Source: Eledone cirrhosa
Lineage: Eukaryota
Assembly (NCBI GenBank): GCA_964016885.1
Contig: OZ024764.1
Span: 8,928,001-8,992,000 of the forward strand
Direction: 5' to 3'
Length of the DNA: 64,000 bases
This document shows, in pieces, positions 3,001-58,343 of this stretch. A program made the translations under genes and the position numbers. Under the pieces are notes generated by a model that was not told the origin of the DNA, searched no databases, and worked only from the letters and a program-made list of their open reading frames with translations. How positions within the stretch are numbered: the first letter of the stretch is position 1; the number at the start of each line of letters is the position of its first letter.

Positions 3001-3480
3001 TTCATAGACCCAGAATTCCCAAAGTCCCATTGCTATCGGTTCATAGACCCAGAATTCCCAAAGTCCCATTGCTATAGGTTCATAGACCCAGAATTCCCAA
3101 AGTCCCATTGCTATAGGTTCATAGACCCAGAATTCCCAAAGTCCCATTGCTATAGGTTCATAGACCCAGAATTCCCAAAGTCTCCATTGCTATAGGTTCA
3201 TAGACCCAGAATTCCCAAAGTCCCATTGCTATAGGTTCATAGACCCAGAATTCCCAAAGTCTCCATTGCTATAGGTTCATAGACCCAGAATTCCCAAAGT
3301 CTCCATTGCTATAGGTTCATAGACCCAGAATTCCCAAAGTCTCCATTGCTATCAGTTCAGGGTTCCAGGACACCAGAAGTCTCCATTGCTATAGGTTCAG
3401 GGATCCAGAATTCCCAAAGTCCCATTGCTATCGGTTCAGGGATCCAGGACACCAGAAGTCACCCTCGCTATAGGTTCAGG
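1..3480. repeat. 39/40-bp tandem satellite (CCCATTGCTATAGGTTCATAGACCCAGAATTCCCAAAGT), runs off window start
   Basis: Near-identical monomers with only two recurring variants (A/C substitution, +1 nt) and a GAATTC in every unit; degenerates at 3350-3480. Confidence 0.98.
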
Positions 3481-12204: not shown

Positions 12205-13727
12205 GGAGATAGGTGTAAAAGCCAAACTTGCTGTCTTCAATTCGGCATTTTTGCCAACCATTACCTATGGTCATGAATCAGGAAGAATACGATTATGAAT
12301 ACAAGCGGCCGAAATAGGATTCTTCTGAAGGGTCTTCAGAGTAACGTTACTTGATAAAGTACATAGCTCAGAGATCAGAGAATCACTCCAAATAGAGCCG
12401 CTACTTCTCTGAATTGAGAGATCACAGCTCCGGTACTACAGACATGTGGTTAGAATGTCTGAGGAAAAAATCTCTGAACTGAGAGATCACAGCTCTGATA
12501 CTACAGACATGTGGTTAGAATATCTCAGAAAAGAATCTCTGAATTGAGAGATCACAGCCCTGATACTACAGACATGTGGTTGGAATGTCCCAGGAAAGAA
12601 TCTCTGAATTGAGAGATCACAGCTCTGATACTACAGATATGTGGTTAGAATGTCTGAGGAAAGAATCTCTGAATTGAGAGATCACAGCTCTGATACTACA
12701 GACATGTGGTTAGAATGTCTGAGGAAAGAATCTGTGAATTGAGAGATCACAGCTCTGATACTACAGACATGTGGTTGGAATGTCTCTGCAAAGAATCTCT
12801 GAATTGAGAGATCACAGCTCTGATACGACAGACATGTGGTTAGAATGTCTCAGGAAAGAATCTCTGAATTGAGAGATCACAGCTCTGATACTACAGACAT
12901 GTGGTTAGAATGTCTCAGGAAAGAATCTCTGAATTGAGAGATCACAGCTCCGATACTACAGACATGTGGTTGGAATGACTCAGCAAAGAATCTCTGAATT
13001 GAGAGATCACAGCTCTGATACTACAGACATGTGGTTAGAATGTCTCTGCAAAGAATCTCTGAATTGAGAGATCACAGCTCTGATACTACAGACATGTGGT
13101 TAGAATGTCTCGGGAAAGAATCTCTGAATTGAGAGATCACAGCTCTGATACTACAGACATGTGGTTAGAATGTCTGAGGAAAGAATCTCTGAATTGAGAG
13201 ATCACAGCTCTGATACTACAGACATGTGGTTAGAATGTCTCAGGAAAGAATCTCTGAATTGAGAGATCACAGCTCTGATACTACAGACATGTGGTTAGAA
13301 TGTCTCAGGAAAGAATCTGTGAATTGAGAGATCACAGCTCTGATACTACAGACATGTGGTTAGAATGTCTCGGGAAAGAATCTGTGAATTGAGAGATCAC
13401 AGCTCTGATACTACAGACATGTGGTTAGAATGTCTCAGGAAAGAATCACTGAATTGAGAGATCACAGCTCCGATACTACAGACATGTGGTTAGAATGTCT
13501 CTGGAAAGAATTGCTGGACAGATTTTATGGGCAAAACTAACCGGTAGGAGAGCTAAGGGTAGACCCTGATCAAGATGGTTGGATAACATCCATGAGCTTG
13601 GCTGGTCTTACTTGGGGATCCAGCTGGATCAGTTGAAGACGGTTGCTTCTGACAGGACCTGCTGGAAGGAGTGTTTGAGGACTCTGCCCCCACCAACCCT
13701 CTCAGGAATAAGTGGGCGAAGAAGAAG
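12205..13727 (+). mobile_element. RTE LINE 3' fragment (family 2) with internal 65-bp array
   Basis: Degenerate FLPTITYGHES..IQAAEIGF..VTLLDKVHSSEIRESLQIEPLLL.IERSQLRYYRHVVRM..TGRRAKGRP..WLDNI; (GAA)n tail. Confidence 0.88.
12405..13512. repeat. 65-bp tandem array (~17 copies) derived from RTE ORF2
   Basis: GAATTGAGAGATCACAGCTCTGATACTACAGACATGTGGTTAGAATGTCTCAGGAAAGAATCTCT, period 65. Confidence 0.96.
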
Positions 13728-25220: not shown

Positions 25221-25295
25221 CGTTTTCTGTTCTGTGGCAATCAATAAAGTCATCTGTGCTAATTGCTGTTTTAATTAGTTCCACAATTGAAAGAT
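25221..25295 (-). CDS. VPS33A: VPS33A coding exon 10
   Basis: (H)LSIVELIKTAISTDDFIDCHRTEN; AG/GT bounded, 75 nt, phase-compatible with both neighbours. Confidence 0.93.
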
Positions 25296-25552: not shown

Positions 25553-25613
25553 TAGTCAGTAGGCCTCTCCCAACCAAATACACACCCCAACGCACTACCC
25601 CTACTCCATCCTT

Positions 25614-28600
25614 TCATGTCTTTCGTGGTCTTCCTCTACTGCGTCTTCCTTCCACCAGGATTTGTTGGCACTTCTTTACCCAGCGGTCATCCTCCATGCA
25701 CATCACATGTCCATACCATCTCAGTCTTCTCTCCCACACACCACAACTTATCCCTCTTATACACAGTTTCTCTCTCAACACATCACATGTCCATACCATC
25801 TCAGTCTTCTCTCCCACACACCACAACTTATCCCTCTTATACACAGTTTCTCTCTCAACACATCACATGTCCAAACCATCTCAGTCTTCTCTCCCACACA
25901 CTACAGTTTATCCCTCTTATACACAGTTTCTCTCTCAACACATCACATGTCCATACCATCACACACTACAGTTTATCCCTCTTATACACAGTTTCTGTCT
26001 CAACTCATCACATGTCCATACCATCTCAGTCTTCTCTCCCACACACCACAACTTATCCCTCTTATACACAGTTTCTCTCTCAACACATCACATGTCCATC
26101 CCATCTCAGTCTTCTCTCCACCACACCACAACTTATCCCTCTTATACACAGTTTCTCTCTCAACACATCACATGTCCATACCATCTCAGTCTTCTCTCCC
26201 ACACACTTCAACTTATCCCTCTTAAACACAGTTTCTCTCTCAACACATCACATTTCCATACCATCTCAGTCTTCTCTCCCACACACCACAACTTATCCCT
26301 CTTATACACAGTTTCTCTCTCAACACATCACATTTCCATACCATCTCAGTCTTCTCTCCCACACACTACAGTTTATCCCTCTTATACCCAGTTTCTCTCT
26401 CAACACATCACATGTCCATACCATCTCAGTCTTCTCTCCCACGCACTACAGTTTATCCCTCTTATACACAGTTTCTCTCTCAACACATCACATGTCCATA
26501 CCATCTCAGTCTTCTCTTCCACACACCACAACTTATCCCTCTTATACACAGTTTCTCTCTCAACACATCACACGTCCATACCATCTCAGTCTTCTCTCCC
26601 ACACACCACAACTTATCCCTCTTATACACAGTTTCTCTCTCAACACATCACATGTCCATACCATCTCAGTCTTCTCTCCCACACACCACAACTTATCCCT
26701 CTTATACACAGTTTCTCTCTCAACACATCACATGTCCATACCATCTCAGTCTTCTCTCCCACACACCACAACTTATCCCTCTTATACACAGTTTCTCTCT
26801 CAACACATCACATGTCCATACCATCTCAGTCTTCTCTCCCACACACCACAACTTATCCCTCTTATACACAGTTTCTCTCTCAACACATCACATGTCCATA
26901 CCATCTCAGTCTTCTCTCCCGCACACTACAACTTATCCCTCTTAAACACAGTTTCTCTCTCAACACATCACATGTCCATACCATCTCAGTCTTCTCTCTC
27001 AACACATCACATGTCCATACCTTCTCAGTCTTCTCTCCCACACACCACAACTTATCCCTCTTATACACAGTTTCTCTCTCAACACATCACATGTCCATAC
27101 CATCTCAGTCTTCTCTCCCGCACACCACAACTTATCCCTCTTATACACAGTTTCTCTCTCAACACATCACATGTCCATACCATCTCAGTCTTCTCTCCCA
27201 CACACCACAACTTATCCCTCTTATACACAGTTTCTCTCTCAACACATCACATGTCCATACCTTCTCAGTCTTCTCTCCCACACACCACAACTTATCCCTC
27301 TTATACACAGTTTCTCTCTCAACACATCACATGTCCATACCATCTCAGTCTTCTCTCTCAACACATCACATGTCCATACCTTCTCAGTCTTCTCTCCCAC
27401 ACACCACAACTTATCCCTCTTATACACAGTTTCTCTCTCAACACATCACATGTCCATACCATCTCAGTCTTCTCTCCCGCACACCACAACTTATCCCTCT
27501 TATACACAGTTTCTCTCTCAACACATCACATGTCCATACCATCTCAGTCTTCTCTCCCGCACACCACAACCTATCCCCCTTACACACAGTTTCTCTCTCA
27601 ACACATCACATGTCCATACCATCTCAGTCTTCTCTCCCACACACCACAACTTATCCGTCTTATACACAGTTTCTCTCTCAACACATCACATGTCCATACC
27701 ATCTCAGTCTTCTCTCCCACACACCACAACTTATCCCTCTTATACACAGTTTCTCTCTCAACACATCACACGTCCATACCATCTCAGTCTTCTCTCCCAC
27801 ACACCACAACTTATCCCTCTTATACACAGTTTCTCTCTCAACACATCACATGTCCATACCATCTCAGTCTTCTCTCCCGCACACCACAACCTATCCCCCT
27901 TATACACAGTTTCTCTCTCAACACATCACATGTCCATACCATCTCAGTCTTCTCTCCCACATACCACAACTTATCCCTCTTATACACAGTTTCTCTCTCA
28001 ACACATCACATGTCCATACCATCTCAGTCTTCTCTCCCACACACCACAACTTATCCCTCTTATACCCAGTTTCTCTCTCAACACATCACATGTCCATACC
28101 ATCTCAGTCTTCTCTCCAACACACCACAACTTATCCCTCTTATACACAGTTTCTCTCTCAACACATCACATGTCCATACCATCTCAGTCTTCTCTCCAAC
28201 ACACCACAACTTATCCCTCTTATACCCAGTTTCTCTCTCAACACATCACATGTCCATACCATCTCAGTCTTCTCTCCCACACACCACAACTTATCCCTCT
28301 TATACACAGTTTCTCTCTCAACTCATCACATGTCCATACCATCTCAGTCTTCTCTCCCACACACCACAACTTATCCCTCTTATACCCAGTTTCTCTCTCA
28401 ACACATCACATGTCCATACCATCTCAGTCTTCTCTCCCACACACCACAACTTATCCCTCTTATACACAGTTTCTCTCTCAACACATCACATGTCCATACC
28501 ATCTCAGTCTTCTCTCCCACACACCACAACTTATCCCTCTTATACACAGTTTCTCTCTCAACACATCACACGTCCATACCATCTCAGTCTTCTCTCCCAC

Positions 28601-30289
28601 ACACCACAACTTATCCCTCTTATACACAGTTTCTCTCTCAACACATCACATGTCCATACCATCTCAGTCTTCTCTCCCACACACCACAACTTATCCCTCT
28701 TATACACAGTTTCTCTCTCAACACATCACATGTCCATACCATCTCAGTCTTCTCTCCCACACACCACAACTTATCCCTCTTATACACAGTTTCTCTCTCA
28801 ACACATCACATGTCCATACCATCTCAGTCTTCTCTCCCGCACACCACAACCTATCCCCCTTATACACAGTTTCTCTCTCAACACATCACATGTCCATACC
28901 ATCTCAGTCTTCTCTCCCACACATTACAGTTTATCCCTCTTATACCCAGTTTCTCTCTCAACACATCACATGTCCATACCATCTCAGTCTTCTCTCCCAC
29001 ACACCACAACTTATCCCTCTTATACACAGTTTCTCTCTCAACACATCACATGTCCATACCATCTCAGTCTTCTCTCCCACGCACCACAACTTATCCCTCT
29101 TATACACAGTTTCTCTCTCAACACATCACATGTCCATACCATCTCAGTCTTCTCTCCCACACACCACAACTTATCCCTCTTATACACAGTTTCTCTCTCA
29201 ACACATCACATGTCCATACCATCTCAGTCTTCTCTCCCACACACCACAACTTATCCTTCTTAAACACAGTTTCTCTCTCAACACATCACATGTCCATCCC
29301 ATCTCAGTCTTCTCTCCCGCACACCACAACTTATCCCTCTTATACACAGTTTCTCTCTCAACACATCACATGTCCATACCATCTCAGTCTTCTCTCCCGC
29401 ACACCACAACTTATCCCTCTTATACACAGTTTCTCTCTCAACACATCACATGTCCATACCATCTCAGTCTTCTCTCCCACGCACCACAACTTATCCCTCT
29501 TATACACAGTTTCTCTCTCAACACATCACATGTCCATACCATCTCAGTCTTCTCTCCCACACACCACAACTTATCCCTCTTATACACAGTTTCTCTCTCA
29601 ACACATCACATGTCCATACCTTCTCAGTCTTCTCTCCCGCACACCACAACTTATCCCTCTTATACACAGTTTCTCTCTCAACACATCACACGTCCATACC
29701 ATCTCAGTCTTCTCTCCCGCACACCACAACTTATCCCTCTTATACACAGTTTCTCTCTCAACACATCACATGTCCATACCATCTCAGTCTTCTCTCCCAC
29801 ACACCACAACTTATACCTCTTATACACAGTTTCTCTCTCAACACATCACATGTCCATACCATCACAGTCTTCTCTCCCACACACCACAACTTATACCTCT
29901 TATACACAGTTTCTCTCTCAACACATCACATGTCCATACCATCTCAGTCTTCTCTCCCACACACTACAACTTATCCCTCTTATACACAGTTTCTCTCTCA
30001 ACACATCACATGTCCATACCATCTCAGTCTTCTCTCCCACACACCACAACTTATCCCTCTTATACACAGTTTCTCTCTCAACACATCACATGTCCATACC
30101 AACGCAGTCTTCTCTCCCACACACCACAACTTATACCTCTTATACACAGTTTCTCTCTCAACACATCACATGTCCATACCATCTCAGTCTTCTCTCCCAC
30201 ACACCACAACTTATCTCTCTTATACACAGTTTCTCTCTCAACTCATCTATGCTTGGTCGTTCATTTCCTTTATTTAGCTAAAGGGTCCT
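25614..30289 (-). mobile_element. RTE LINE 3' fragment with internal 80-bp array (left arm)
   Basis: Minus-strand LREKLCIRGISCGVWERRLRWYGHVMCMEDDRWVKKCQQILVEGRRSRGRPRKT. Confidence 0.88.
25698..30244. repeat. 80-bp tandem array (~57 units), reverse complement of the array at 31729-38688
   Basis: Period 80 with a few shorter deletion units. Confidence 0.98.
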
Positions 30290-30372
30290 TATTTTATTTC
30301 CAACAGGAGCATGTGTTTTTTATTGGCAACATGATCCTCCCAAAATATAACAATATATATATATATACTCAC

Positions 30373-30463
30373 GGTTTGCTACAGCCTGTCGTACAGCTGT
30401 CAGATGAGGGAGTTTTGACACAAACTGTTTCAGTTTGTCTAAAGTGTTCGCAGAATGGCGTTC
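30373..30463 (-). CDS. VPS33A: VPS33A coding exon 9
   Basis: ERHSANTLDKLKQFVSKLPHLTAVRQAVAN; AG/GT bounded, 91 nt. Confidence 0.95.
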
Positions 30464-30605
30464 CTGTAGCAAAAGAAAAAATATATATATATATATTAGT
30501 ATTGGTACTGTGAAATAGCGATGTATACATGAACGTATGTATTGTATATTTAGCAATATACTGAATGTTTATTTTAAAACATTTTGAAGACCATTCGCTA
30601 TGGTT

Positions 30606-31595
30606 TTAACCCTTTACATTACTCTATATATACTATTGTATTTTCACAGTAAAGACTTTACCTCACTTAATATCTAACATAACATTTACATGACTCTATA
30701 TATACTATTGTATTTTCACAATAAAGGCTTTACTTCACATAATATCTCACATAACATTTACATTACTCTATATATACTATTGTATTTTCACAGTAAAGGC
30801 TTTACCTCACATAACATTTACATTACTCTATATATACTATTGTATTTTCACAATAAAGGCTTTACCTCACATAATATCTCACATAACTCTATATATACTA
30901 TTGTATTTTCACAATAAAGGCTTTACCTCACATAATATCTCACATAACATTTACATTACTCTATATATACTATTGTATTTTCACAGTAAAGGCTTTACCT
31001 CACATAATATCTCACATAACATTTACATTACTCTATATATACTATTGTATTGTCACAGTAAAGGCTTTACCTCACATAATATCTCACATAACATTTACAT
31101 TACTCTATATATACTATTGTATTGTCACAGTAAAGGCTTTACCTCACATAATACCTCACATAACATTTACATTACTCTATATATACTATTGTATTGTCAC
31201 AGTAAAGGCTTTACCTCACATAATATCTCACATAACATTTACATTACTCTATATATACTATTGTATTGTCACAGTAAAGGCTTTACCTCACATATCTCAC
31301 ATAACATTTACATTACTCTATATATACTATTGTCTTTTCACAATAAAGGCTTTACCTCACATAATATCTCACATAACATTTACATTACTCTATATATACT
31401 ATTGTATTGTATTTTTGTGGTAAAGGCTTTGTCTTACATAATTATCTCTCATAGTATCGAAGCTATGAGATTTTGATGTTATTTATTTTGAGAACAATAC
31501 CTTAACATAAGTATGAGTGGCAATTACTGCTGGTTTGGACAGAAAGAAGTGAGAGACTTCTGGCCATATGGCTAGTTTAAATGCTAAAGGGTTAA
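30606..31595. mobile_element. piggyBac-like TTAA MITE with internal ~72-bp tandem expansion
   Basis: TTAA-CCCTTTA ... TAAAGGG-TTAA termini; unexpanded tandem pair at 53493-53907 and a minus-strand relative at ~48213-48675. Confidence 0.8.
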
Positions 31596-31681
31596 AGTAG
31601 TGACTATGTCACTTACTTATTCTCAGCAAAAGCAAATCTTTTGTACATTTCGAAAAGAGGTTGATGAAAAGACAGGCTGAG

Positions 31682-34600
31682 AGGACCCTTTAACTAAATA
31701 AAGGACATGAACGACCAAGCATAGATGAGTTGAGAGAGAAACTGTGTATAAGAGGGATAAGTTGAAGTGTGCGGAAGAGAAGACTGTGATGGTATGGACA
31801 TGTGATGTGTTGAGAGAGAAACTGTGTATAAGAGGGATAAGTTGTAGTGTGTAGGAGAGAAGACTGAGATGGTATGGACATGTGATGTGTTGAGAGAGAA
31901 ACTGTGTATAAGAGGGATAAGTTGTGGTGTGTGGGAGACAAGACTGAGATGGTATGGACATGTGATGTGTTGAGAGAGAAACTGTGTATAAGAGGGATAA
32001 GTTGTAGTGTGTGGGAGAGAAGACTGAGATGGTATGGACATGTGATGTGTTGAGAGAGAAACTGTGTATAAGAGGGATAAGTTGTGGTGTGTGGGAGAGA
32101 AGGCTGAGATGGTATGGACATGTGATGTGTTGAGAGAGAAACTGTGTATAAGAGGGATAAGTTGTGGTGTGTGGGAGAGAAGACTGAGATGGTATGGACA
32201 TGTGATGTGTTGAGAGAGAAACTGTGTATAAGAGGGATAAGTTGTGGTGTGTGGGAGAGAAGACTGAGATGGTATGGACATGTGATGTGTTGAGAGAGAA
32301 ACTGTGTATAAGAGGGATAAGTTGTAGTGTGTGGGAGAGAAGACTGAGATGGTATGGACATGTGATGTGTTGAGAGAGAAACTGTGTATAAGAGGGATAA
32401 GTTGTGGTGTGTGGGAGAGAAGGCTGAGATGGTATGGACATGTGATGTGTTGAGAGAGAAACTGTGTATAAGAGGGATAAGTTGTAGTGTGCGGGAGAGA
32501 AGACTGAGATGGTATGGACATGTGATGTGTTGAGAGAGAAACTGTGTATAAGAGGGATAGGTTGTGGTGTGTGGGAGAGAAGGCTAAGATGGTATGGACA
32601 TGTGATGTGTTGAGAGAGAAACTGGGTATAAGAGGGATAAGTTGTAGTGTGTGGGAGAGAAGGCTGAGATGGTATGGACATGTGATGTGTTGAGAGAGAA
32701 ACTGTGTATAAGAGGGATAAACTATAGTGTGTGGGAGAGAAGACTGAGATGGTATGGACATGTGATGTGTTGAGAGAGAAACTGGGTATAAGAGGGATAG
32801 GTTGTGGTGTGTGGGAGAGAAGGCTGAGATGGTATGGACATGTGATGTGTTGAGAGAGAAACTGGGTATAAGAGGGATAAGTTGTGGTGTGTGGGAGAGA
32901 AGGCTGAGATGGTATGGACATGTGATGTGTTGAGAGAGAAACTGTGTATAAGAGGGATAAGTTGTGGTGTGTGGGAGAGAAGACTGAGATGGTATGGACA
33001 TGTGATGTGTTGAGAGAGAAACTGTGTATAAGAGGGATAAGTTGTGGTGTGTGGGAGAGAAGACTGAGATGGTATGGACATGTGATGTGTTGAGAGAGAA
33101 ACTGTGTATAAGAGGGATAAGTTGTGGTGTGTGGGAGAGAAGGCTGAGATGGTATGGACATGTGATGTGTTGAGAGAGAAACTGTGTATAAGAGGGATAA
33201 GTTGTAGTGTGCGGGAGAGAAGACTGAGATGGTATGGACATGTGATGTGTTGAGAGAGAAACTGGGTATAAGAGGGATAAGTTGTGGTGTGTGGGAGAGA
33301 AGACTGAGATGGTATGGACATGTGATGTGTTGAGAGAGAAACTGTGTATAAGAGGGATAAGTTGTGGTGTGTGGGAGAGAAGGCTGAGATGGTATGGACA
33401 TGTGATGTGTTGAGAGAGAAACTGTGTATAAGAGGGATAAGTTGTAGTGTGCGGGAGAGAAGACTGAGATGGTATGGACATGTGATGTGTTGAGAGAGAA
33501 ACTGTGTATAAGAGGGATAGGTTGTGGTGTGTGGGAGAGAAGGCTGAGATGGTATGGACATGTGATGTGTTGAGAGAGAAACTGTGTATAAGAGGGATAG
33601 GTTGTGGTGTGTGGGAGAGAAGGCTGAGATGGTATGGACATGTGATGTGTTGAGAGAGAAACTGGGTATAAGAGGGATAAGTTGTAGTGTGTGGGAGAGA
33701 AGACTGAGATGGTATGGACATGTGATGTGTTGAGAGAGAAACTGGGTATAAGAGGGATAAGTTGTAGTGTGTGGGAGAGAAGACTGAGATGGTATGGACA
33801 TGTGATGTGTTGAGAGAGAAACTGTGTATAAGAGGGATAAGTTGTGGTGTGTGGGAGAGAAGGCTGAGATGGTATGGACATGTGATGTGTTGAGAGAGAA
33901 ACTGTGTATAAGAGGGATAAGTTGTGGTGTGTGGGAGAGAAGACTGAGATGGTATGGACATGTGATGTGCTGAGAGAGAAACTGTGTATAAGAGGGATAA
34001 GTTGTGGTGTGTGGGAGAGAAGACTGAGATGGTATGGACATGTGATGTGTTGAGAGAGAAACTGTGTATAAGAGGGATAAGTTGTGGTGTGTGGGAGAGA
34101 AGGCTGAGATGGTATGGACATGTGATGTGTTGAGAGAGAAACTGGGTATAAGAGGGATAAGTTGTGGTGTGTGGGAGAGAAGTCTGAGATGGTATGGACA
34201 TGTGATGTGTTGAGAGAGAAACTGGGTATAAGAGGGATAAGTTGTAGTGTGTGGGAGAGAAGACTGAGATGGTATGGACATGTGATGTGTTGAGAGAGAA
34301 ACTGGGTATAAGAGGGATAAGTTGAAGTGTGCGGAAGAGAAGACTGAGATGGTATGGACATGTGATGTGTTGAGAGAGAAACTGTGTATAAGAGGGATAA
34401 GTTGTAGTGTGCGGGAGAGAAGACTGAGATGGTATGGACATGTGATGTGTTGAGAGAGAAACTGGGTATAAGAGGGATAGGTTGTGGTGTGTGGGAGAGA
34501 AGACTGAGATGGTATGGACATGTGATGTGTTGAGAGAGAAACTGGGTATAAGAGGGATAGGTTGTGGTGTGTGGGAGAGAAGACTGAGATGGTATGGACA

Positions 34601-37600
34601 TGTGATGTGTTGAGAGAGAAACTGTGTATAAGAGGGATAGGTTGTGGTGTGTGGGAGAGAAGACTGAGATGGTATGGACATGTGATGTGTTGAGAGAGAA
34701 ACTGGGTATAAGAGGGATAGGTTGTGGTGTGTGGGAGAGAAGACTGAGATGGTATGGACATGTGATGTGTTGAGAGAGAAACTGGGTATAAGAGGGATAG
34801 GTTGTGGTGTGTGGGAGAGAAGACTGAGATGGTATGGACATGTGATGTGTTGAGAGAGAAACTGGGTATAAGAGGGATAAGTTGTGGTGTGTGGGAGAGA
34901 AGACTGAGATGGTATGGACATGTGATGTGTTGAGAGAGAAACTGTGTATAAGAGGGATAAGTTATGGTGTGTGGGAGAGAAGACTGAGATGGTATGGACA
35001 TGTGATGTGTTGAGAGAGAAACTGTGTATAAGAGGGATAAGTTATGGTGTGTGGGAGAGAAGACTGAGATGGTATGGACATGTGATGTGTTGAGAGAGAA
35101 ACTGTGTATAAGAGGGATAAGTTGTGGTGTGTGGGAGAGAAGACTGAGATGGTATGGACATGTGATGTGTTGAGAGAGAAACTGTGTATAAGAGGGATAA
35201 GTTATGGTGTGTGGGAGAGAAGACTGAGATGGTATGGACATGTGATGTGTTGAGAGAGAAACTGGGTATAAGAGGGATAGGTTGTGGTGTGTGGGAGAGA
35301 AGGCTGAGATGGTATGGACATGTGATGTGTTGAGAGAGAAACTGGGTATAAGAGGGATAAGTTGTGGTGTGTGGGAGAGAAGGCTGAGATGGTATGGACA
35401 TGTGATGTGTTGAGAGAGAAACTGGGTATAAGAGGGATAGGTTGTGGTGTGTGGGAGAGAAGACTGAGATGGTATGGACATGTGATGTGTTGAGAGAGAA
35501 ACTGTGTATAAGAGGGATAGGTTGTGGTGTGTGGGAGAGAAGACTGAGATGGTATGGACATGTGATGTGTTGAGAGAGAAACTGGGTATAAGAGGGATAG
35601 GTTGTGGTGTGTGGGAGAGAAGACTGAGATGGTATGGACATGTGATGTGTTGAGAGAGAAACTGGGTATAAGAGGGATAGGTTGTGGTGTGTGGGAGAGA
35701 AGACTGAGATGGTATGGACATGTGATGTGTTGAGAGAGAAACTGGGTATAAGAGGGATAAGTTGTGGTGTGTGGGAGAGAAGACTGAGATGGTATGGACA
35801 TGTGATGTGTTGAGAGAGAAACTGTGTATAAGAGGGATAAGTTGTGGTGTGTGGGAGAGAAGACTGAGATGGTATGGACATGTGATGTGTTGAGAGAGAA
35901 ACTGTGTATAAGAGGGATAAGTTATGGTGTGTGGGAGAGAAGACTGAGATGGTATGGACATGTGATGTGTTGAGAGAGAAACTGGGTATAAGAGGGATAG
36001 GTTGTGGTGTGTGGGAGAGAAGGCTGAGATGGTATGGACATGTGATGTGTTGAGAGAGAAACTGGGTATAAGAGGGATAAGTTGTGGTGTGTGGGAGAGA
36101 AGGCTGAGATGGTATGGACATGTGATGTGTTGAGAGAGAAACTGTGTATAAGAGGGATAAGTTGTGGTGTGTGGGAGAGAAGACTGAGATGGTATGGACA
36201 TGTGATGTGTTGAGAGAGAAACTGTGTATAAGAGGGATAAGTTGTGGTGTGTGGGAGAGAAGACTGAGATGGTATGGACATGTGATGTGTTGAGAGAGAA
36301 ACTGTGTATAAGAGGGATAAGTTGTGGTGTGTGGGAGAGAAGGCTGAGATGGTATGGACATGTGATGTGTTGAGAGAGAAACTGTGTATAAGAGGGATAA
36401 GTTGTAGTGTGCGGGAGAGAAGACTGAGATGGTATGGACATGTGATGTGTTGAGAGAGAAACTGGGTATAAGAGGGATAAGTTGTGGTGTGTGGGAGAGA
36501 AGACTGAGATGGTATGGACATGTGATGTGTTGAGAGAGAAACTGTGTATAAGAGGGATAAGTTGTGGTGTGTGGGAGAGAAGGCTGAGATGGTATGGACA
36601 TGTGATGTGTTGAGAGAGAAACTGTGTATAAGAGGGATAAGTTGTAGTGTGCGGGAGAGAAGACTGAGATGGTATGGACATGTGATGTGTTGAGAGAGAA
36701 ACTGTGTATAAGAGGGATAGGTTGTGGTGTGTGGGAGAGAAGGCTGAGATGGTATGGACATGTGATGTGTTGAGAGAGAAACTGTGTATAAGAGGGATAA
36801 GTTGTGGTGTGTGGGAGAGAAGACTGAGATGGTATGGACATGTGATGTGCTGAGAGAGAAACTGTGTATAAGAGGGATAAGTTGTGGTGTGTGGGAGAGA
36901 AGACTGAGATGGTATGGACATGTGATGTGTTGAGAGAGAAACTGTGTATAAGAGGGATAAGTTGTGGTGTGTGGGAGAGAAGGCTGAGATGGTATGGACA
37001 TGTGATGTGTTGAGAGAGAAACTGGGTATAAGAGGGATAAGTTGTGGTGTGTGGGAGAGAAGTCTGAGATGGTATGGACATGTGATGTGTTGAGAGAGAA
37101 ACTGGGTATAAGAGGGATAAGTTGTAGTGTGTGGGAGAGAAAACTGAGATGGTATGGACATGTGATGTGTTGAGAGAGAAACTGGGTATAAGAGGGATAA
37201 GTTGTGGTGTGTGGGAGAGAAGTCTGAGATGGTATGGACATGTGATGTGTTGAGAGAGAAACTGGGTATAAGAGGGATAAGTTGTAGTGTGTGGGAGAGA
37301 AGACTGAGATGGTATGGACATGTGATGTGTTGAGAGAGAAACTGGGTATAAGAGGGATAAGTTGAAGTGTGCGGAAGAGAAGACTGAGATGGTATGGACA
37401 TGTGATGTGTTGAGAGAGAAACTGTGTATAAGAGGGATAAGTTGTAGTGTGCGGGAGAGAAGACTGAGATGGTATGGACATGTGATGTGTTGAGAGAGAA
37501 ACTGGGTATAAGAGGGATAGGTTGTGGTGTGTGGGAGAGAAGACTGAGATGGTATGGACATGTGATGTGTTGAGAGAGAAACTGGGTATAAGAGGGATAG

Positions 37601-38911
37601 GTTGTGGTGTGTGGGAGAGAAGACTGAGATGGTATGGACATGTGATGTGTTGAGAGAGAAACTGTGTATAAGAGGGATAGGTTGTGGTGTGTGGGAGAGA
37701 AGACTGAGATGGTATGGACATGTGATGTGTTGAGAGAGAAACTGGGTATAAGAGGGATAGGTTGTGGTGTGTGGGAGAGAAGACTGAGATGGTATGGACA
37801 TGTGATGTGTTGAGAGAGAAACTGGGTATAAGAGGGATAGGTTGTGGTGTGTGGGAGAGAAGACTGAGATGGTATGGACATGTGATGTGTTGAGAGAGAA
37901 ACTGGGTATAAGAGGGATAAGTTGTGGTGTGTGGGAGAGAAGACTGAGATGGTATGGACATGTGATGTGTTGAGAGAGAAACTGTGTATAAGAGGGATAA
38001 GTTATGGTGTGTGGGAGAGAAGACTGAGATGGTATGGACATGTGATGTGTTGAGAGAGAAACTGTGTATAAGAGGGATAAGTTATGGTGTGTGGGAGAGA
38101 AGACTGAGATGGTATGGACATGTGATGTGTTGAGAGAGAAACTGTGTATAAGAGGGATAAGTTGTGGTGTGTGGGAGAGAAGACTGAGATGGTATGGACA
38201 TGTGATGTGTTGAGAGAGAAACTGTGTATAAGAGGGATAAGTTATGGTGTGTGGGAGAGAAGACTGAGATGGTATGGACATGTGATGTGTTGAGAGAGAA
38301 ACTGTGTATAAGAGGGATAAGTTATGGTGTGTGGGAGAGAAGACTGAGATGGTATGGACATGTGATGTGTTGAGAGAGAAACTGTGTATAAGAGGGATAA
38401 GTTATGGTGTGTGGGAGAGAAGACTGAGATGGTATGGACATGTGATGTGTTGAGAGAGAAACTGTGTATAAGAGGGATAAGTTATGGTGTGTGGGAGAGA
38501 AGACTGAGATGGTATGGACATGTGATGTGTTGAGAGAGAAACTGTGTATAAGAGGGATAAGTTGTGGTGTGTGGGAGAGAAGACTGAGATGGTATGGACA
38601 TGTGATGTGTTGAGAGAGAAACTGTGTATAAGAGGGATAAGTTATGGTGTGTGGGAGAGAAGACTGCGCTGGTATGGACATGTGATGCGCATGGAGGATG
38701 ACTGCTGGGTAAAGTGCCAAGAAATCCCAGTAGAAGGAAGACGCAGTAGAGAAAGACCATGAAAATCATGGGATGAGGTGGTGAGAGCTGACCTCAGATC
38801 GCTGAAGCTCACAGAGGAAATGAAGGGCCGTGACAAGTGGAGAGATGCTGTGCTGAATAGGACCCGTCCCACCCTTGCAAGCAGGGAAAATGGACGTAAA
38901 ATGATGATGAA
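31682..38911 (+). mobile_element. RTE LINE 3' fragment with internal 80-bp array (right arm) and intact 3' tail
   Basis: ERPSIDELREKL..(array)..ERRLRWYGHVMRMEDDCWVKCQEIPVEGRRSRERP, then CCCGTCCCACCCTTGCAAGCAGGGAAAATGGACGTAAAATGATGATGA. Confidence 0.9.
31729..38688. repeat. 80-bp tandem array (~87 units)
   Basis: Exact 80-bp period with no indels seen. Confidence 0.98.
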
Positions 38912-38924
38912 GAGGTTAACTTAC

Positions 38925-39121
38925 ATCGAACTGGGCCGAGAGTAGTTTGAGTTTCTTGCAGACGAGGGAGTTGATGGCATCAATGTTCTTGTCTCGAAGA
39001 TCAGCAAAGTGTTCATCTGATGAATCAAGGACTATTTTCTTCGGCTCCAAAGTGACGTCACCTTTGTGGTCTTTCAGTTGTTCTTTGGTCATGAATTTTT
39101 CCGCTGGGAGTTTCACATTGG
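38925..39121 (-). CDS. VPS33A: VPS33A coding exon 8
   Basis: NVKLPAEKF...EPKKIVLDSSDEHFADLRDKNIDAINSLVCKKLKLLSAQFD; AG/GT bounded, 197 nt. Confidence 0.96.
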
Positions 39122-39375
39122 CTGGCAAATAAACAAAACACATAAACCAACAAATGGTGGTGGTGGTGGGGGAATAGTAATGGTGGTGGTGGTGGGGAGG
39201 ATAGTAATGGTGGTGGTGGTGGTGGGGGATAGTAATGGCGAGTGGTGGCGAATGGTAATGGTGTTGGTGGGGTGTAGTAATGGTATTGGTGGGGGGATAG
39301 TAATGGTCGGGGTGGGGAATGGTAATGGAAGTAGTTGTAGTGGTCGTGGTGATGATGATGATAACAGTGGTCAGA

Positions 39376-42162
39376 ACTCCTGACAGAAGAAAGGAGCTGA
39401 TCATCAGATCAGACCAAGGAAACAATGTCTCCATTGGTCTTTCCATTGTTGATACTATCTGTCAGTCACAACTCCTGGCAGAAGAAAGGAGCTGATTGTC
39501 AGATCAGACCAAGGAAACAATGTTTCCATTGGTCTTTCCATTGTTGATACTATCTGTCAGTCACAACTCCTGGCAGAAGAAAGGAGCTGATTGTCAGATC
39601 AGACCAAGGAAACAATGTTTCCATTGGTCTTTCCATTGTTGATACTATCTGTCAGTCACAACTCCTGGCAGAAGAAAGGAGCTGATTGTCAGATCAGACC
39701 AAGGAAACAATGTTTCCATTGGTCTTTCCATTACTGATACCATCTGTCAGTCACAACTCCTGGCAGAAGAAAGGAGCTGATTGTCAGATCAGACCAAGGA
39801 AACAATGTTTCCATTGGTCTTTCCATTACTGATACTATCTGTCAGTCACAACTCCTGGCAGAAGAAAGGAGCTGATCATCAGATCAGACCAAGGAAACAA
39901 TGTTTCCATTGGTCTTTCCATTACTGATACTATCTGTCAGTCACAACTCCTGGCAGAAGAAAGGAGCTGATCATCAGATCAGACCAAGGAAACAATGTCT
40001 CCATTGGTCTTTCCATTACTGATACTATCTGTCAGTCACAACTCCTGGCAGAAGAAAGGAGCTGATCATCAGATCAGACCAAGGAAACAATGTTTCCATT
40101 GGTCTTTCCATTACTGATACTATCTGTCAGTCACAACTCCTGGCAGAAGAAAGGAGCTGATCATCAGATCAGACCAAGGAAACAATGTTTCCATTGGTCT
40201 TTCCATTACTGATACTATCTGTCAGTCACAACTCCTGGCAGAAGAAAGGAGCTGATCATCAGATCAGACCAAGGAAACAATGTCTCCATTGGTCTTTCCA
40301 TTACTGATACTATCTGTCAGTCACAACTCCTGGCAGAAGAAAGGAGCTGATCATCAGATCAGACCAAGGAAACAATGTTTCCATTGGTCTTTCCATTACT
40401 GATACTATCTGTCTGTCACAACTCCTGACAGAAGAAAGGAGCTGATCATCAGATCAGACCAAGGAAACAATGTTTCCATTGGTCTTTCCATTACTGATAC
40501 TATCTGTCAGTCACAACACCTGGCAGAAGAGAGGAGCTGATCATCAGATCAGACCAAGGAAACAATGTTTCCATTGGTCTTTCCATTACTGATACTATCT
40601 GTCAGTCACAACTCCTGGCAGAAGAAAGGAGCTGATCATCAGATCAGACCAAGGAAACAATGTCTCCATTGGTCTTTCCATTACTGATACTATCTGTCAG
40701 TCACAACTCCTGGCAGAAGAAAGGAGCTGATCATCAGATCAGACCAAGGAAACAATGTTTCCATTGGTCTTTCCATTACTGATACTATCTGTCTGTCACA
40801 ACTCCTGACAGAAGAAAGGAGCTGATCATCAGATCAGACCAAGGAAACAATGTTTCCATTGGTCTTTCCATTACTGATACTATCTGTCAGTCACAACTCC
40901 TGGCAGAAGAAAGGAGCTGATCATCAGATCAGACCAAGGAAACAATGTTTCCATTGGTCTTTCCATTACTGATACTATCTGTCAGTCACAACTCCTGGCA
41001 GAAGAAAGGAGCTGATCATCAGATCAGACCAAGGAAACAATGTCTCCATTGGTCTTTCCATTACTGATACTATCTGTCAGTCACAACTCCTGGCAGAAGA
41101 AAGGAGCTGATCATCAGATCAGACCAAGGAAACAATGTTTCCATTGGTCTTTCCATTACTGATACTATCTGTCAGTCACAACTCCTGGCAGAAGAAAGGA
41201 GCTGATCATCAGATCAGACCAAGGAAACAATGTTTCCATTGGTCTTTCCATTACTGATACTATCTGTCAGTCACAACTCCTGGCAGAAGAAAGGAGCTGA
41301 TCATCAGATCAGACCAAGGAAACAATGTCTCCATTGGTCTTTCCATTACTGATACTATCTGTCAGTCACAACTCCTGGCAGAAGAAAGGAGCTGATCATC
41401 AGATCAGACCAAGGAAACAATGTTTCCATTGGTCTTTCCATTACTGATACTATCTGTCTGTCACAACTCCTGACAGAAGAAAGGAGCTGATCATCAGATC
41501 AGACCAAGGAAACAATGTTTCCATTGGTCTTTCCATTACTGATACTATCTGTCAGTCACAACACCTGGCAGAAGAGAGGAGCTGATCATCAGATCAGACC
41601 AAGGAAACAATGTTTCCATTGGTCTTTCCATTACTGATACTATCTGTCAGTCACAACTCCTGGCAGAAGAAAGGAGCTGATCATCAGATCAGACCAAGGA
41701 AACAATGTCTCCATTGGTCTTTCCATTACTGATACTATCTGTCAGTCACAACTCCTGGCAGAAGAAAGGAGCTGATCATCAGATCAGACCAAGGAAACAA
41801 TGTTTCCATTGGTCTTTCCATTACTGATACTATCTGTCTGTCACAACTCCTGACAGAAGAAAGGAGCTGATCATCAGATCAGACCAAGGAAACAATGTTT
41901 CCATTGGTCTTTCCATTACTGATACTATCTGTCTGCCACAACTCCTGGCAGAAGAAAGGAGCTGATCATCAGATCAGACCAAGGAAACAATGTTTCCATT
42001 GGTCTTTCCATTACTGATACTATCTGTCAGTCACAACTCCTGGCAGAAGAAAGGAGCTGATCATCAGATCAGACCAAGGAAACAATGTTTCCTTGGGTCT
42101 TTCCATTGCTGATACTATCTGGCAGAAGAAAGGAGCTGATCATCAGATCAGACTAAGGAAAC
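39376..42162. repeat. 95-bp tandem array (~29 copies)
   Basis: ACTCCTGGCAGAAGAAAGGAGCTGATCATCAGATCAGACCAAGG... recurs at 39471, 39566, 39661 and so on. Confidence 0.97.
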
Positions 42163-49503: not shown

Positions 49504-49804
49504 ATATATATAATATAATATATATATATAATACATTTATATACCTATCATCATCATCATCATCACCGTTTTACGTCCATTCTTTCACACTCTTGCGAGT
49601 ATATCATCAAACAATTTATACATCTCATCTGTATTTTATCTGAAGAAGGCATGCTCTGATTTATGTTAAACATAAATTTTTGCATCCCCAAAATATATAT
49701 AATGAAACAGTGATGTTATAAAGTTATATCTTTCGTTTATTACTATTATTATCATATATATATAAATATATATACATGTATATATCATATGTATATATAT
49801 ACAC

Positions 49805-50139
49805 ATCATCATCATTATTTCATCATTTCATTTTACGTCCACTTTTCCCTGCTTGCAAGGGTGGGACGGGAACTGATTCTGGCTTGATTTCTACAGCTGG
49901 ATGCCCTTCCTAACACCAACCTCATTTACAGTGAGTGCTGGGTGCTTTTTTGCCGTGGCACCTCCACGACCACTTTGCAGTGGAATGATAGGGACCCCAG
50001 TCCCTATCATCTCATTTCTACAGCTGAGTAAACTGGAGCAATGTGAAATAAAGTGTCTTGCTGAAGGAAACACCCGGTCTGAGAATTGAACTCACAACCT
50101 TTCGATTGCAAGGCCAATGCTCTAACCACTAAGCCATGT
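49805..50139 (-). mobile_element. tRNA/CORE SINE with RTE tail
   Basis: Head ATGGCTTAGTGGTTAGAGC...GAGTTCAATTC, CORE-like body, (GAT)n tail. Confidence 0.88.
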
Positions 50140-50168
50140 ATATATATATATATCATATGTATATATAT

Positions 50169-50250
50169 GATTACCGAAGTTAAGCAACGTCGAGCCTAGT
50201 TAGTACTTAGATGGGTGACTGCTTGGGAACCTTAGGTGCCGTAAGCATTT
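50169..50250 (+). pseudogene. 5S rRNA copy, 5'-truncated
   Basis: GATTACCGAAGTTAAGCAACGTCGAGCCTAGTTAGTACTTAGATGGGTGACTGCTTGGGAACCTTAGGTGCCGTAAGCATTT. Confidence 0.88.
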
Positions 50251-50262
50251 ACTGCTATATAT

Positions 50263-50602
50263 GGAGGCACATGGCTTAGTGGTTAGAGCATTGGCCTTGA
50301 AATCAAAAGGTTGTGAGTTCAATTCTCAGACCGGGTGATGTGTTGTTTCCTTCAGCAAGACACTTTATTTCACATTGCTCCAGTTTACTCAGCTGTAGAA
50401 ATGAGATGATAGGGACTGGGGTCCCTATCATTCCACTGCAAAGTGGTTGTGGAGGTGCCACGGAAAAAAAGCACCCAGCACTCACTGTAAATGAGGTTGG
50501 TGTTAGGAAGGGCATCCAGCTGTAGAAATCAAGCCAGAATCAGTTCCCGTCCCACCCTTGCAAGCAGGGAAAAGCGGAGGTAAAAATGATGATGATGATG
50601 AT
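50263..50602 (+). mobile_element. Full-length tRNA/CORE SINE with RTE tail
   Basis: A box TGGCTTAGTGG, B box GAGTTCAATTC, CORE-like segment; tail shared with the RTE end at 38863-38911. Confidence 0.9.
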
Positions 50603-50682
50603 ATATATATATGTACACACACATATATATATACACAGAAAGATGTAATGTGGTGAAGAATGTGCAAGAAGTGCTGACTTAC

Positions 50683-52626: not shown

Positions 52627-52961
52627 CTATCATCATTTCATTTTACGTCCGCCTTTTCCCTGCTTGCAAGGGTGGGACGGGAACTGATTCTGGCTTGATT
52701 TCTACAGCTGGATGCCCTTCCTAACACCAACCTCATTTACAGTGAGTGCTGGGTGCTTTTTTGCCGTGGCACCTCCACGACCACTTTGCAGTGGAATGAT
52801 AGGGACCCCAGTCCCTAGCATCTCATTTCTACAGCTGAGTAAACTGGAGCAATGTGAAATAAAGTGTCTTGCTGAAGGAAACAACACATCACCCGGTCTG
52901 AGAATTGAACTCACAACCTTTCGATTGCAAGGCCAATGCTCTAACCACTAAGCCATGTGCT
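52627..52961 (-). mobile_element. tRNA/CORE SINE with RTE tail
   Basis: Near-identical reverse complement of 50263-50602. Confidence 0.9.
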
Positions 52962-53492
52962 TATATATATATAGAATATATAGAGAGAGAGACGGGGGAG
53001 CCGACGAGGGAACCCTAACCCTATTCCAGTAATAATGATATTTTCGATTCCTGCTTTCAAGCTGTAATGTAAAGGATGATATCCTCCTCAATAAGTTTAC
53101 TCTATGTTGGGTATTGAGTTCTTTTCGCTTTGTCTGTAAAGTTATTTCGTATGTAGAGAGTGAGACACTGGTACACACAACCTCGTGACTAGTGTGACTG
53201 CGAGTAATGAATTCAAACATCTATATCGTGTTATTTTTTACACTTTTCCTAAGTTCCTTTATGCTCTCTACGTCTCTTCCTTCATTTCCTCTTACATCTC
53301 TCTCTCTCTCTCATTACCACCTGATTATGTTACCCGGAGGTTTACCCATCTGCATTGTTGAGGCTTCCAAAACAACTATTTTTATTACTATATATATATA
53401 TATATTCATTTATGTTTAGTGGTTCACCACTGGATAGAACTGGTCATTCCGTTTAGCTAACCATAATGTAATAGTAGGAAAAGCACTCTACT

Positions 53493-56084: not shown

Positions 56085-58343
56085 ATACAAGCAGCCAAAA
56101 TAGAATTCCTTCAATGGGTCTTTGGAGTAACATTACCCTATAATATACATATCTTGATGATCAGAGAGTCACTTCAGATAGAGCCGTTGCTTCTTTGAAT
56201 TGAGAGATCACAGCTCTGATACTATGGGCATGTGGTTAGAATGTCTCAGGAAAGAATCTCTGAATTGAGAGATTACAGCTCTGACACTACAGACATGTGG
56301 TTAGAATGTCTCAGGAAAGAATCTCTGAATTGAGAGATCACAGCTCTGACACTACAGACATGTGGTTAGAATGTCTCAGGAAAGAATCTCTGAATTGAGA
56401 GATCACAGCTCTGACACTACAGACATGTGGTTAGAATGTCTCAGGAAAGAATCTCTGAATTGAGAGATCACAGCTCTGACACTACAGACATGTGGTTAGA
56501 ATGTCTCAGGAAAGAATCTCTGAATTGAGAGATCACAGCTCTGACACTACAGACATCTGGTTAGAATGTCTCAGGAAAGAATCTCTGAATTGAGAGATCA
56601 CAGCTCTGACACTACAGACATGTGGTTAGAATGTCTCAGGAAAGAATCTCTGAATTGAGAGATCACAGCTCTGATACTACAGACATGTGGTTAGAATGTC
56701 TCAGGAAAGAATCTCTGAATTGAGAGATCACTGCTCTGATACTACAGACATGTGGTTAGAATGTCTCAGGAAAGAATCTCTGGATTGAGAGATCACTGCT
56801 CTGATACTACAGACATGTGGTTAGAATGTCTCAGGAAAGAATCTCTGAATTGAGAGATCACAGCTCTGATACTACAGACATGTGGTTAGAATGTCTCAGG
56901 AAAGAATCTCTGAATTGAGAGATCACAGCTCTGATGCTACAGACATGTGGTTAGAATGTCTCAGGAAAGAATCTCTGAATTGAGAGATCACAGCTCTGAT
57001 GCTACAGACATGTGGTTAGAATGTCTCAGGAAAGAATCTCTGGATTGAGAGATCACAGCTCTGATGCTACAGACATGTGGTTAGAATGTCTCAGGAAAGA
57101 ATCTCTGGATTGAGAGATCACAGCTCTGATGCTACAGACATGTGGTTAGAATGTCTCAGGAAAGAATCTCTGAATTGAGAGATCACAGCTCTGATACTAC
57201 AGACATGAGGTTAGAATGTCTCAGGAAAGAATCTCTGAATTGAGAGATCACAGCTCTGACACTACAGACATGTGGTTAGAATGTCTCAGGAAAGAATCTC
57301 TGAATTGAGAGATCACAGCTCTGACACTACAGACATGTGGTTAGAATGTCTCAGGAAAGAATCTCTGAATTGAGAGATCACAGCTCTGACACTACAGACA
57401 TGTGGTTAGAATGTCTCAGGAAAGAATCTCTGAATTGAGAGATCACAGCTCTGACACTACAGACATCTGGTTAGAATGTCTCAGGAAAGAATCTCTGAAT
57501 TGAGAGATCACAGCTCTGATACTACAGACATGTGGTTAGAATGTCTCAGGAAAGAATCTCTGAATTGAGAGATCACTGCTCTGATACTACAGACATGTGG
57601 TTAGAATGTCTCAGGAAAGAATCTCTGGATTGAGAGATCACTGCTCTGATACTACAGACATGTGGTTAGAATGTCTCTGGGAAGAATCTCTGAATTGAGA
57701 GATCACAGCTCTGATACTACAGACATGTGGTTAGAATGTCTCAGGAAAGAATCTCTGGATTGAGAGATCACAGCTCTGATACTACAGACATGTGGTTAGA
57801 ATGTCTCAGGAAAGAATCTCTGAATTGAGAGACCACAGCTCTGATACTACAGACATGTGGTTAGAATGTCTCAGGAAAGAATCTCTGAATTGAGAGATCA
57901 CAGCTCTGATACTACAGACATGTGGTTAGAATGTCTCAGGAAAGAATCTCTGAATTGAGAGATCACAGCTCTGATACTACAGACATGTGGTTAGAATGTC
58001 TCAGGAAAGAATCTCTGAATTGAGAGATCACAGCTCTGATACTACAGACATGTGGTTAGAATGTCACAGGAAAGAATCTCTGGATTGAGAGATCACAGCT
58101 CTGATACTACAGACATGTGGTTAGAATGTCTCTGGGAAGAATTGCTGGACAAATTTTACAGGCAAAAACCAACTGGTAGGAGACCCAGGGATAGAACCAT
58201 GAGCTTGGCTGATCTCGCTTGGGGATCTAGGTGGATTAGTTGAAGACGGTTACTTCTGACAGGACCCGTTGGAGGGAGTGTTTGAGGACTCTACCCCCAC
58301 GACTCTCTCAGGAATAAGTGGGCAAAGAAGAAGAAGAAAAAGA
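56085..58343 (+). mobile_element. RTE LINE 3' fragment (family 2) with internal 65-bp array (~30 copies, ~56197-58145)
   Basis: IQAAKIEFLQWVFGVTL...IRESLQIEPLLL.IERSQL.YYGHVVRMSQER..QKPTGRRPRDR; (GAA)n tail; same unit as 12405-13512. Confidence 0.9.

Follow-up and report, generated by a model that had tools for sequence, protein, structure and literature searches.

An inverted pair of LINE-derived 80-bp arrays flanks exon 9 of VPS33A in the octopus Eledone cirrhosa

The window analysed here is a stretch of 64,000 nt from Eledone cirrhosa (assembly GCA_964016885.1, contig OZ024764.1, positions 8,928,001 to 8,992,000 of the forward strand), which lies on the contig labelled C25. Coordinates are positions in the window unless a contig label precedes them, and the wider scan covers 664 kb of C25 around the window. 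The window contains VPS33A, a housekeeping gene. Two tandem arrays of an 80-bp unit, which is derived from a long interspersed nuclear element (LINE), lie in opposite orientations across exon 9 of this gene, and they form a real and unusually large inverted repeat. The features of the locus are as follows.

16201-54588, minus strand: VPS33A, 16 coding exons, intact 610-codon frame without internal stop
25221-25295, minus strand: VPS33A coding exon 10
25615-30289, minus strand: left arm, a LINE 3' fragment with an internal array and without the LINE tail end
25615-25698, minus strand: left tail stub, 84 bp of the LINE tail
25699-30247, minus strand: left 80-bp array, about 56 units, including irregular units (two of 119 bp and one of 65 bp)
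30266-30289, minus strand: inner junction copy 1, 24 bp, non-LINE
30373-30463, minus strand: VPS33A coding exon 9 of 16, 91 nt, AG/GT borders, phase 0 to phase 1
30610-31591, no strand assigned: miniature inverted-repeat transposable element (MITE), CCC...GGG ends, flanking TTAA duplication
31682-31705, plus strand: inner junction copy 2, 24 bp, non-LINE
31724-38687, plus strand: right 80-bp array, 87 units (87.1 copies by Tandem Repeats Finder, TRF)
38688-38909, plus strand: right LINE 3' tail, complete, ending in (ATG)3
38925-39121, minus strand: VPS33A coding exon 8

The VPS33A frame is identical to a VPS33A-like protein of Octopus vulgaris at 590 of 610 residues, this homologue mapping from 54588 to 16201, and exon 8 matches human VPS33A in PDB 4bx8/4bx9. 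The arms lie in the two longest introns of the gene, intron 8 (8,461 nt) and intron 9 (5,077 nt). Exon 9 is present in all four cephalopod proteins compared, with 29, 30, 29 and 26 of its 30 residues identical. Its splice sites are among the stronger ones of the gene, the acceptor ranking second and the donor fifth of 15 by a rough leave-one-out matrix. Loss of this exon from the message causes a frameshift with a stop after residue 331, as computed on the gene model. The exon number and the frameshift proposed in the first-pass annotation of this DNA therefore agree with the 610-codon model.

The left and right units are reverse complements with a period of 80 (TRF). Self-BLAST gives one inverted match between 25615-30289 and 31682-38770, which is 94.5% identical over 4,730 columns and has a gap of 1,393 bp. 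These results bear out two statements of the first-pass annotation, that the two arrays are reverse complements of one 80-bp unit and that they enclose a loop of about 1.4 kb with the 91-nt exon 9 and a MITE. The annotation also anticipated about 4.5 kb of near-perfect double-stranded RNA. The length holds, but "near-perfect" must be read as one mismatch in about 18 positions, and no perfect match between the arms is longer than 239 bp. The 664 kb contain 199 inverted matches that are at least 200 bp long and at most 20 kb apart; 12 of them exceed 1 kb and only this one exceeds 4 kb. Counted from anchor to anchor, the left array has 55 units and the right array 86, numbers that rest on the assembly. 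The right array shows a higher-order repeat of about 36 units, the variant pattern of units 28-44 returning at units 64-81. The (ATG)3 end of the right arm is located 15 bases from exon 8, just beyond the donor site (38901-38924), and 13 bases from the end of the donor hexamer of intron 8. The left arm is bordered on its outer side by a repeat resembling a short interspersed nuclear element (SINE) that is cut at 25612, and on its inner side the cut end of a MITE follows after 10 bp, at 30300.

The inversion is not a mirror mis-assembly, because each arm carries private variants, the outer ends of the arms are unlike and differ by about 140 bp, the longest perfect match is only 239 bp, and the assembly gaps are distant. 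The variant 50A>G is present in 20 of 86 right units and in none of 51 left units, whereas 67A>G is present in 4 of 51 left units and in none of 86 right units. The only two 200-N gaps in the 664 kb are located 21 kb and 268 kb to the left of the window.

The MITE in the loop, which the first-pass annotation had noticed, is confirmed by its CCC...GGG ends, by the TTAA duplication that flanks it, and by a single TTAA at the corresponding site in each of five other host-repeat copies read, which represent empty sites. Such ends, together with a TTAA duplication relative to an empty site, are the marks of a piggyBac-like MITE, and the element presumably belongs to this group. It contains a 72-bp array at 30613-31408 (TRF), which the earlier annotation did not mention.

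A single-unit copy of the LINE on another contig (L122) contains one open frame of 356 codons, which runs from a region with reverse transcriptase and PHD domains (Pfam PF00078, E 1.5e-10, and PF00628) through the unit. The 80-bp unit is thus confirmed, by its sequence, as an internal piece of a LINE open reading frame, and the derivation of the arrays from a LINE, as first proposed, is upheld. (ATG)n-type tails, which are LINE-type 3' ends, are found in 11 of 20 array copies, the left arm itself being without a tail end, and the array copies are variably truncated at the 5' side, with shared 5' extents of about 40 to 725 bp. In relatives of the parent element, a single open reading frame of about 1,040-1,110 residues encodes an apurinic endonuclease (PF03372), a reverse transcriptase (PF00078) and a zinc finger. 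This architecture fits the RTE clade, to which the parent LINE is assumed to belong. RTE-2_OV, an RTE-clade LINE of octopus, likewise has a single open reading frame with these three domains (PMC9115989), a likeness of domain architecture and not of compared sequences. The word "tandem" does not occur in the available part of PMC9115989.

No consistent target-site duplication is found in the array copies tested. A possible 8-bp duplication around the right arm (31655-31662 and 38910-38917) is regarded as weak for this reason. The 5-bp repeat TCCTT that brackets the left arm (25609-25613 and 30286-30290) was set aside as a target duplication, because both host flanks of this arm are repeats cut at or near the junction. 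In the 664 kb there are also dozens of short elements whose similarity to the LINE is confined to roughly the final 50 bp of its tail, a pattern to be expected of a SINE exploiting this LINE.

The arrays are not peculiar to VPS33A. Exact matches to a 34-mer that spans the tandem junction number 5,292 genome-wide, against none for a control, and the first 100 matches listed span C5-C19, none of them being on C1-C4. A variant form of the junction is matched 114 times in the genome, and C25 accounts for 83 of the 100 matches listed. Arrays of at least three units are present in 8 of 12 young LINE copies in the 664 kb of C25, and in none of the 22 informative copies on C1 (Fisher p = 3e-5); the C1 sample consists of 30 copies selected by their tails, and in each of the 22 that extend over the unit it is present only once. 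Both unit subtypes of the single-unit LINEs are also found as arrays with the same junction. This result suggests, at the level of sequence, that the arrays arise by repeated amplification in place rather than from one array-bearing master. A master LINE carrying an array was rejected as the source of most copies, since none of the 22 informative C1 copies has an array; it is also countered by the 16 copies with the left tail motif, only one of which, the left arm itself, has an array.

Complex-unit arrays of all kinds number 112 in the 664 kb, with recurring families of 72, 65, 80 and 48 bp. All 13 bins of 50 kb on C25 contain 3-13 of them, whereas one bin each of C1, C2 and C4 contains none and one bin of C10 contains five. 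About three inverted neighbour pairs within 1.5 kb are expected on C25 from array density alone, and one of 20 further array sites sampled has a close inverted partner. A second head-to-head pair of the same 80-bp array is located 7 Mb away (C25:15950214-15956318). Its arms of 2.1 and 3.5 kb are about 600 bp apart and 95% identical, and they have rare unit variants in common but no shared junction. The VPS33A pair is therefore not unique, because the array family is genome-wide, is dense on C25 and includes a second pair; the VPS33A pair is extreme in size, not in kind.

An 870-bp tandem unit is duplicated in inverted orientation at C25:9225484-9230130 (97% over 1.4 kb, spacer of about 550 bp). 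The 65-bp family (12406-13511 and 56196-58142, with shared flanks) is represented by 11 arrays in the 664 kb in both orientations, and a 32-mer from it has 7,378 exact genome matches. A 39/40-bp satellite of about 34 kb occupies positions 1-3438 and a further 31 kb to the left of the window, with an assembly gap inside it. Two array copies on C7 (C7:93747873 and C7:93879149), 131 kb apart, share a non-LINE 3' flank, which represents a local duplication at the DNA level.

Satellites derived from retrotransposons with long terminal repeats (LTRs) in Lathyrus sativus expand only in some chromosome regions (PMC7004042). The two systems are alike in that dispersed retroelements seed arrays and expansion is confined to a compartment. 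They differ in that the octopus unit is a coding piece of a non-LTR element and is single-copy in most elements, in that the octopus arrays are shorter than 10 kb in the copies seen, and in that the compartment consists of gene-bearing small chromosomes in octopus and of primary constrictions in Lathyrus (PMC7004042, available text). No description of such a compartment in octopus was found in the literature searched, which includes the available text of PMC13282606 and has most subscription papers and supplements outside its scope; repeat catalogues relevant to novelty could be present in the supplements of the papers cited. PMC13652810 contains no occurrence of "satellite", "tandem repeat" or "inverted".

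The inner ends of the arms are informative about their origin. The 24-bp non-LINE junction has only two matches in the genome, both at this locus, and its source was not found in the genome searches. The arms share an inner stretch of 48 bases, 46 of which are identical and 24 of which are non-LINE, and have the same 5' truncation point. Because these shared non-LINE bases and this truncation point are found only here, the arms are not independent. Their LINE tails are 86% identical, no closer to each other than to those of other copies, and the left tail is 90% identical to that of a third array (93527-96313 in window coordinates), which is located about 63 kb from the left arm. The left tail carries a three-site haplotype that is also found in two other copies (L111 and L118) and in the third array. 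The left and right tails have no common derived change relative to the commonest letters of the family. Sharing of unit variants was compared for 231 pairs of 22 arrays, all with at least eight full units and none of the older unit type. The left-third pair ranks 1, the second inverted pair 3 and the left-right pair 15, and one two-site unit type is private to the left and third arrays, another to the left and right arrays. The seven pairs within 200 kb rank 1, 3, 7, 15, 139, 170 and 192 (permutation p = 0.0035, Mann-Whitney p = 0.051). Ongoing exchange between the left and right arms is not supported.

The left arm is likely to be a mosaic produced by DNA-level copying between neighbours, because it shares a unique junction with the right arm and yet the two tails are of different LINE haplotypes. 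The LINE family is normally single-unit, and most of its young copies on C25 carry arrays. The two ends of the unit resemble each other (GATGnG), a similarity through which the first duplication may have occurred; slippage or unequal exchange would then have lengthened the array where it stood. The tail is complete in the right arm. In the left arm the tail end is missing, and this arm lies between two cut host repeats; it has an inner stretch of 48 bases in common with the right arm, and the same tail type and a rare unit type are present in the third array. On the simplest reading, a template switch primed in the unit homology copied the inner end of the right arm into the left arm, after which the arms, which carry private variants, probably grew separately. 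Template switching at inverted repeats, with templated insertions, is a known mechanism (break-induced replication mediated by microhomology, MMBIR, and fork stalling and template switching, FoSTeS). The likeness to this mechanism is that, where two cut host sequences meet, a short nearby stretch has been copied in inverted orientation; the difference is that the process at VPS33A is read from one assembly.

The main alternative to a mosaic is a single old duplication with later conversion. In the version weighed here, the right element in its entirety, with the junction, a short array and part of the tail, was duplicated in inverted orientation across exon 9 shortly after it had inserted, and every later difference is drift. 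The unique shared junction and the missing tail end of the left arm are consistent with it, the divergence of the junction (2 of about 26) is compatible with that of the tails, and the short-spacer inverted duplication of the 870-bp unit (97%, 1.4-kb arms) lies only 270 kb away. However, the tails have no common derived change, and the three-site haplotype of the left tail needs a second donor, so that this explanation is unlikely, although it retains some weight. Two independent LINE insertions, head to head by chance and never interacting, would account for the different tail haplotypes, for the roughly three close pairs expected by chance on C25 and for a second pair without a shared junction, but not for the 24 non-LINE bases and the truncation point that the arms share only here; this explanation is very improbable, and would be tenable only if the 24 bases belonged to a rare source element. 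So is an assembly artefact, in which a fold-back read or a mis-join created the inversion. The region is rich in repeats, and a palindrome elsewhere on C25 looks artefactual (C25:3895501-3897424; 99.9% over 731 bp and 96.6% over 1,864 bp; it may be very young or an assembly fold-back). At VPS33A, however, the identity of 94.5%, the shortness of the perfect matches, the private variants and the different outer ends all argue against an artefact, and the order and frame of the exons are intact across the locus. Foldback elements have inverted arms of tandem units and a short shared inner domain, and the pair resembles them in this respect. A foldback-type transposon with terminal inverted repeats built of arrays, which captured exon 9, is nevertheless largely refuted and hardly credible. 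The inner junction is restricted to a single locus, the arms lack a common terminus, their outer ends differing as described above, and have no flanking duplication, and no dispersed copies with the same inverted termini are found. Moreover, the arms consist of LINE coding sequence and exon 9 is in its native place.

When the natural minus-strand RNA of 29850-32150 is folded at 20 C, 429 of the 440 bases of the left arm pair with the right arm and exon 9 falls in the loop, so that a long double-stranded RNA is a sound prediction. A duplex of one unit is calculated to have -153 kcal/mol at 37 C, whereas the intron 8 strand alone hardly folds. The arms are likely to pair once both are transcribed, and pairing followed by hyper-editing of the precursor messenger RNA (pre-mRNA) is plausible: the pre-mRNA would pair in many registers and ADAR would edit the arms. 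The unit contains 21-24 A per strand, and 14 of the 24 on the intron 9 strand are preceded by G. In the available text of PMC9699675, RNA editing in octopus is described as falling mostly in introns and 3' untranslated regions, circular RNAs as low, and splicing as showing no departure from that of other invertebrates. On the pre-mRNA, the units in intron 8 present a pyrimidine tract with CAG, scoring 3.3-4.2 (real acceptors 2.4-12.0), and the units in intron 9 present a donor-like GTATGG, scoring 3.2, or 5.8 in four copies (real donors 2.4-11.5). Pairing of the arms is predicted to mask these acceptor-like and donor-like sites. Two TA-rich tracts that flank exon 9 (30352-30370 and 30479-30497) are predicted to form a 19-bp helix covering part of the pyrimidine tract of the exon.

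Skipping of an exon in such a loop is a known mechanism, and by analogy its geometry fits the VPS33A locus. Intronic Alu pairs can shift splicing (PMC2533698). In human TBXT, an inverted AluSx1/AluY pair of about 300 bp each, 1,448 bp apart, suffices to skip exon 6 (PMC10901737). At VPS33A as in TBXT, inverted retroelements in the two adjacent introns, predicted here to pair, enclose one exon in a loop of about 1.4 kb. The arms are 4.7 and 7 kb of tandem units at VPS33A and 300 bp in TBXT; the loss of the exon frameshifts VPS33A, unlike TBXT; and skipping is demonstrated for TBXT (PMC10901737, available text) and conjectural for VPS33A. The VPS33A pair is thus an extreme case of a known kind of exon-flanking inverted repeat. 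Loci that undergo back-splicing also have complementary repeats in both flanking introns, but in the study of such loci as available (PMC4201285) no circle formed from a 51-nt exon, and circularization of ZKSCAN1 exons was poor at 400 nt or below. Exon 9, with 91 nt, is below the lengths that circularized, and by this comparison a single exon of this size would be a poor substrate for back-splicing.

The first-pass annotation suggested that array length could tune the output of VPS33A. A special device of this kind is not supported: such arrays are common, a second pair exists, and exon 9 is conserved. Regulated skipping is likewise unsupported, given the conservation of exon 9, the strength of its splice sites and a length that is small for back-splicing. 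The hairpin might loop out exon 9 often enough to lower VPS33A through frameshift and decay, with editing and array length setting the level. For this explanation speak the loop geometry predicted by folding, the frameshift, a full-length stem that would leave only about 154 nt to the exon 8 donor and about 318 nt to the exon 10 acceptor, and the demonstration of the mechanism for TBXT and also for unrelated inverted sequences (PMC10901737, available text). However, exon 9 has strong splice sites, is fully conserved and is included in all four cephalopod proteins. In addition, the arrays of the two arms are not specially alike (two shared non-modal unit types, compared with up to five shared with distant arrays), and similar structures arise nearby without sign of purpose. 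This explanation is improbable. A broader proposal, in which dispersed transposons on the small octopus chromosomes become arrays in place, trade sequence and build hairpins in genes, and in which array length at VPS33A together with ADAR acts as a heritable expression dial, is speculative and slightly more doubtful still.

The pair is probably a neutral, tolerated by-product of local DNA copying and array growth, whose hairpin is probably edited and whose exon 9 is likely to be included. It most likely arises in a chromosome compartment that amplifies and shuffles transposon pieces. The strong splice sites would keep exon 9 mostly in the message, and skipped messages would be removed by nonsense-mediated decay. 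Several points weigh against this reading. The stem begins 83 nt past the exon 9 donor, so that pairing could compete with splicing, and substantial skipping is possible because the arms are far longer than the pairs of TBXT (PMC10901737, available text). The splice matrix is built from 15 sites only, the tails were compared over about 85 bases, and the LINE copies of C1 and of C25 were sampled by different routes. Sharing among neighbouring arrays is uneven, three of the seven near pairs ranking 139, 170 and 192 of 231, and many of the arrays compared had been selected because they share a variant with the window. The proposed order of events is deduced from a single assembly.

Further repeats are present elsewhere in VPS33A. 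A 345-bp, 96% identical inverted pair of a dispersed repeat (50256-50599 and 52629-52971) flanks exons 2 and 3, which are together 194 nt, and an 888-bp palindrome is located at 49776-50632. A 95-bp array of 29 copies (39370-42121) occupies most of intron 7 and stops 249 bp from the exon 8 acceptor.

Normal inclusion of exon 9 within the 4.5-kb stem would make the locus a natural experiment on how far co-transcriptional splicing and ADAR can shield an exon against intronic double-stranded RNA, at a scale far above that of Alu pairs. If exon 9 is skipped, repeat length would act as a dial on a trafficking gene. The background is the more secure finding, the LINE copies being single-unit on the largest contig and mostly arrays on C25. 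This contrast suggests a compartment of the chromosomes in which transposon pieces are amplified in place, and which would supply many long substrates for ADAR.

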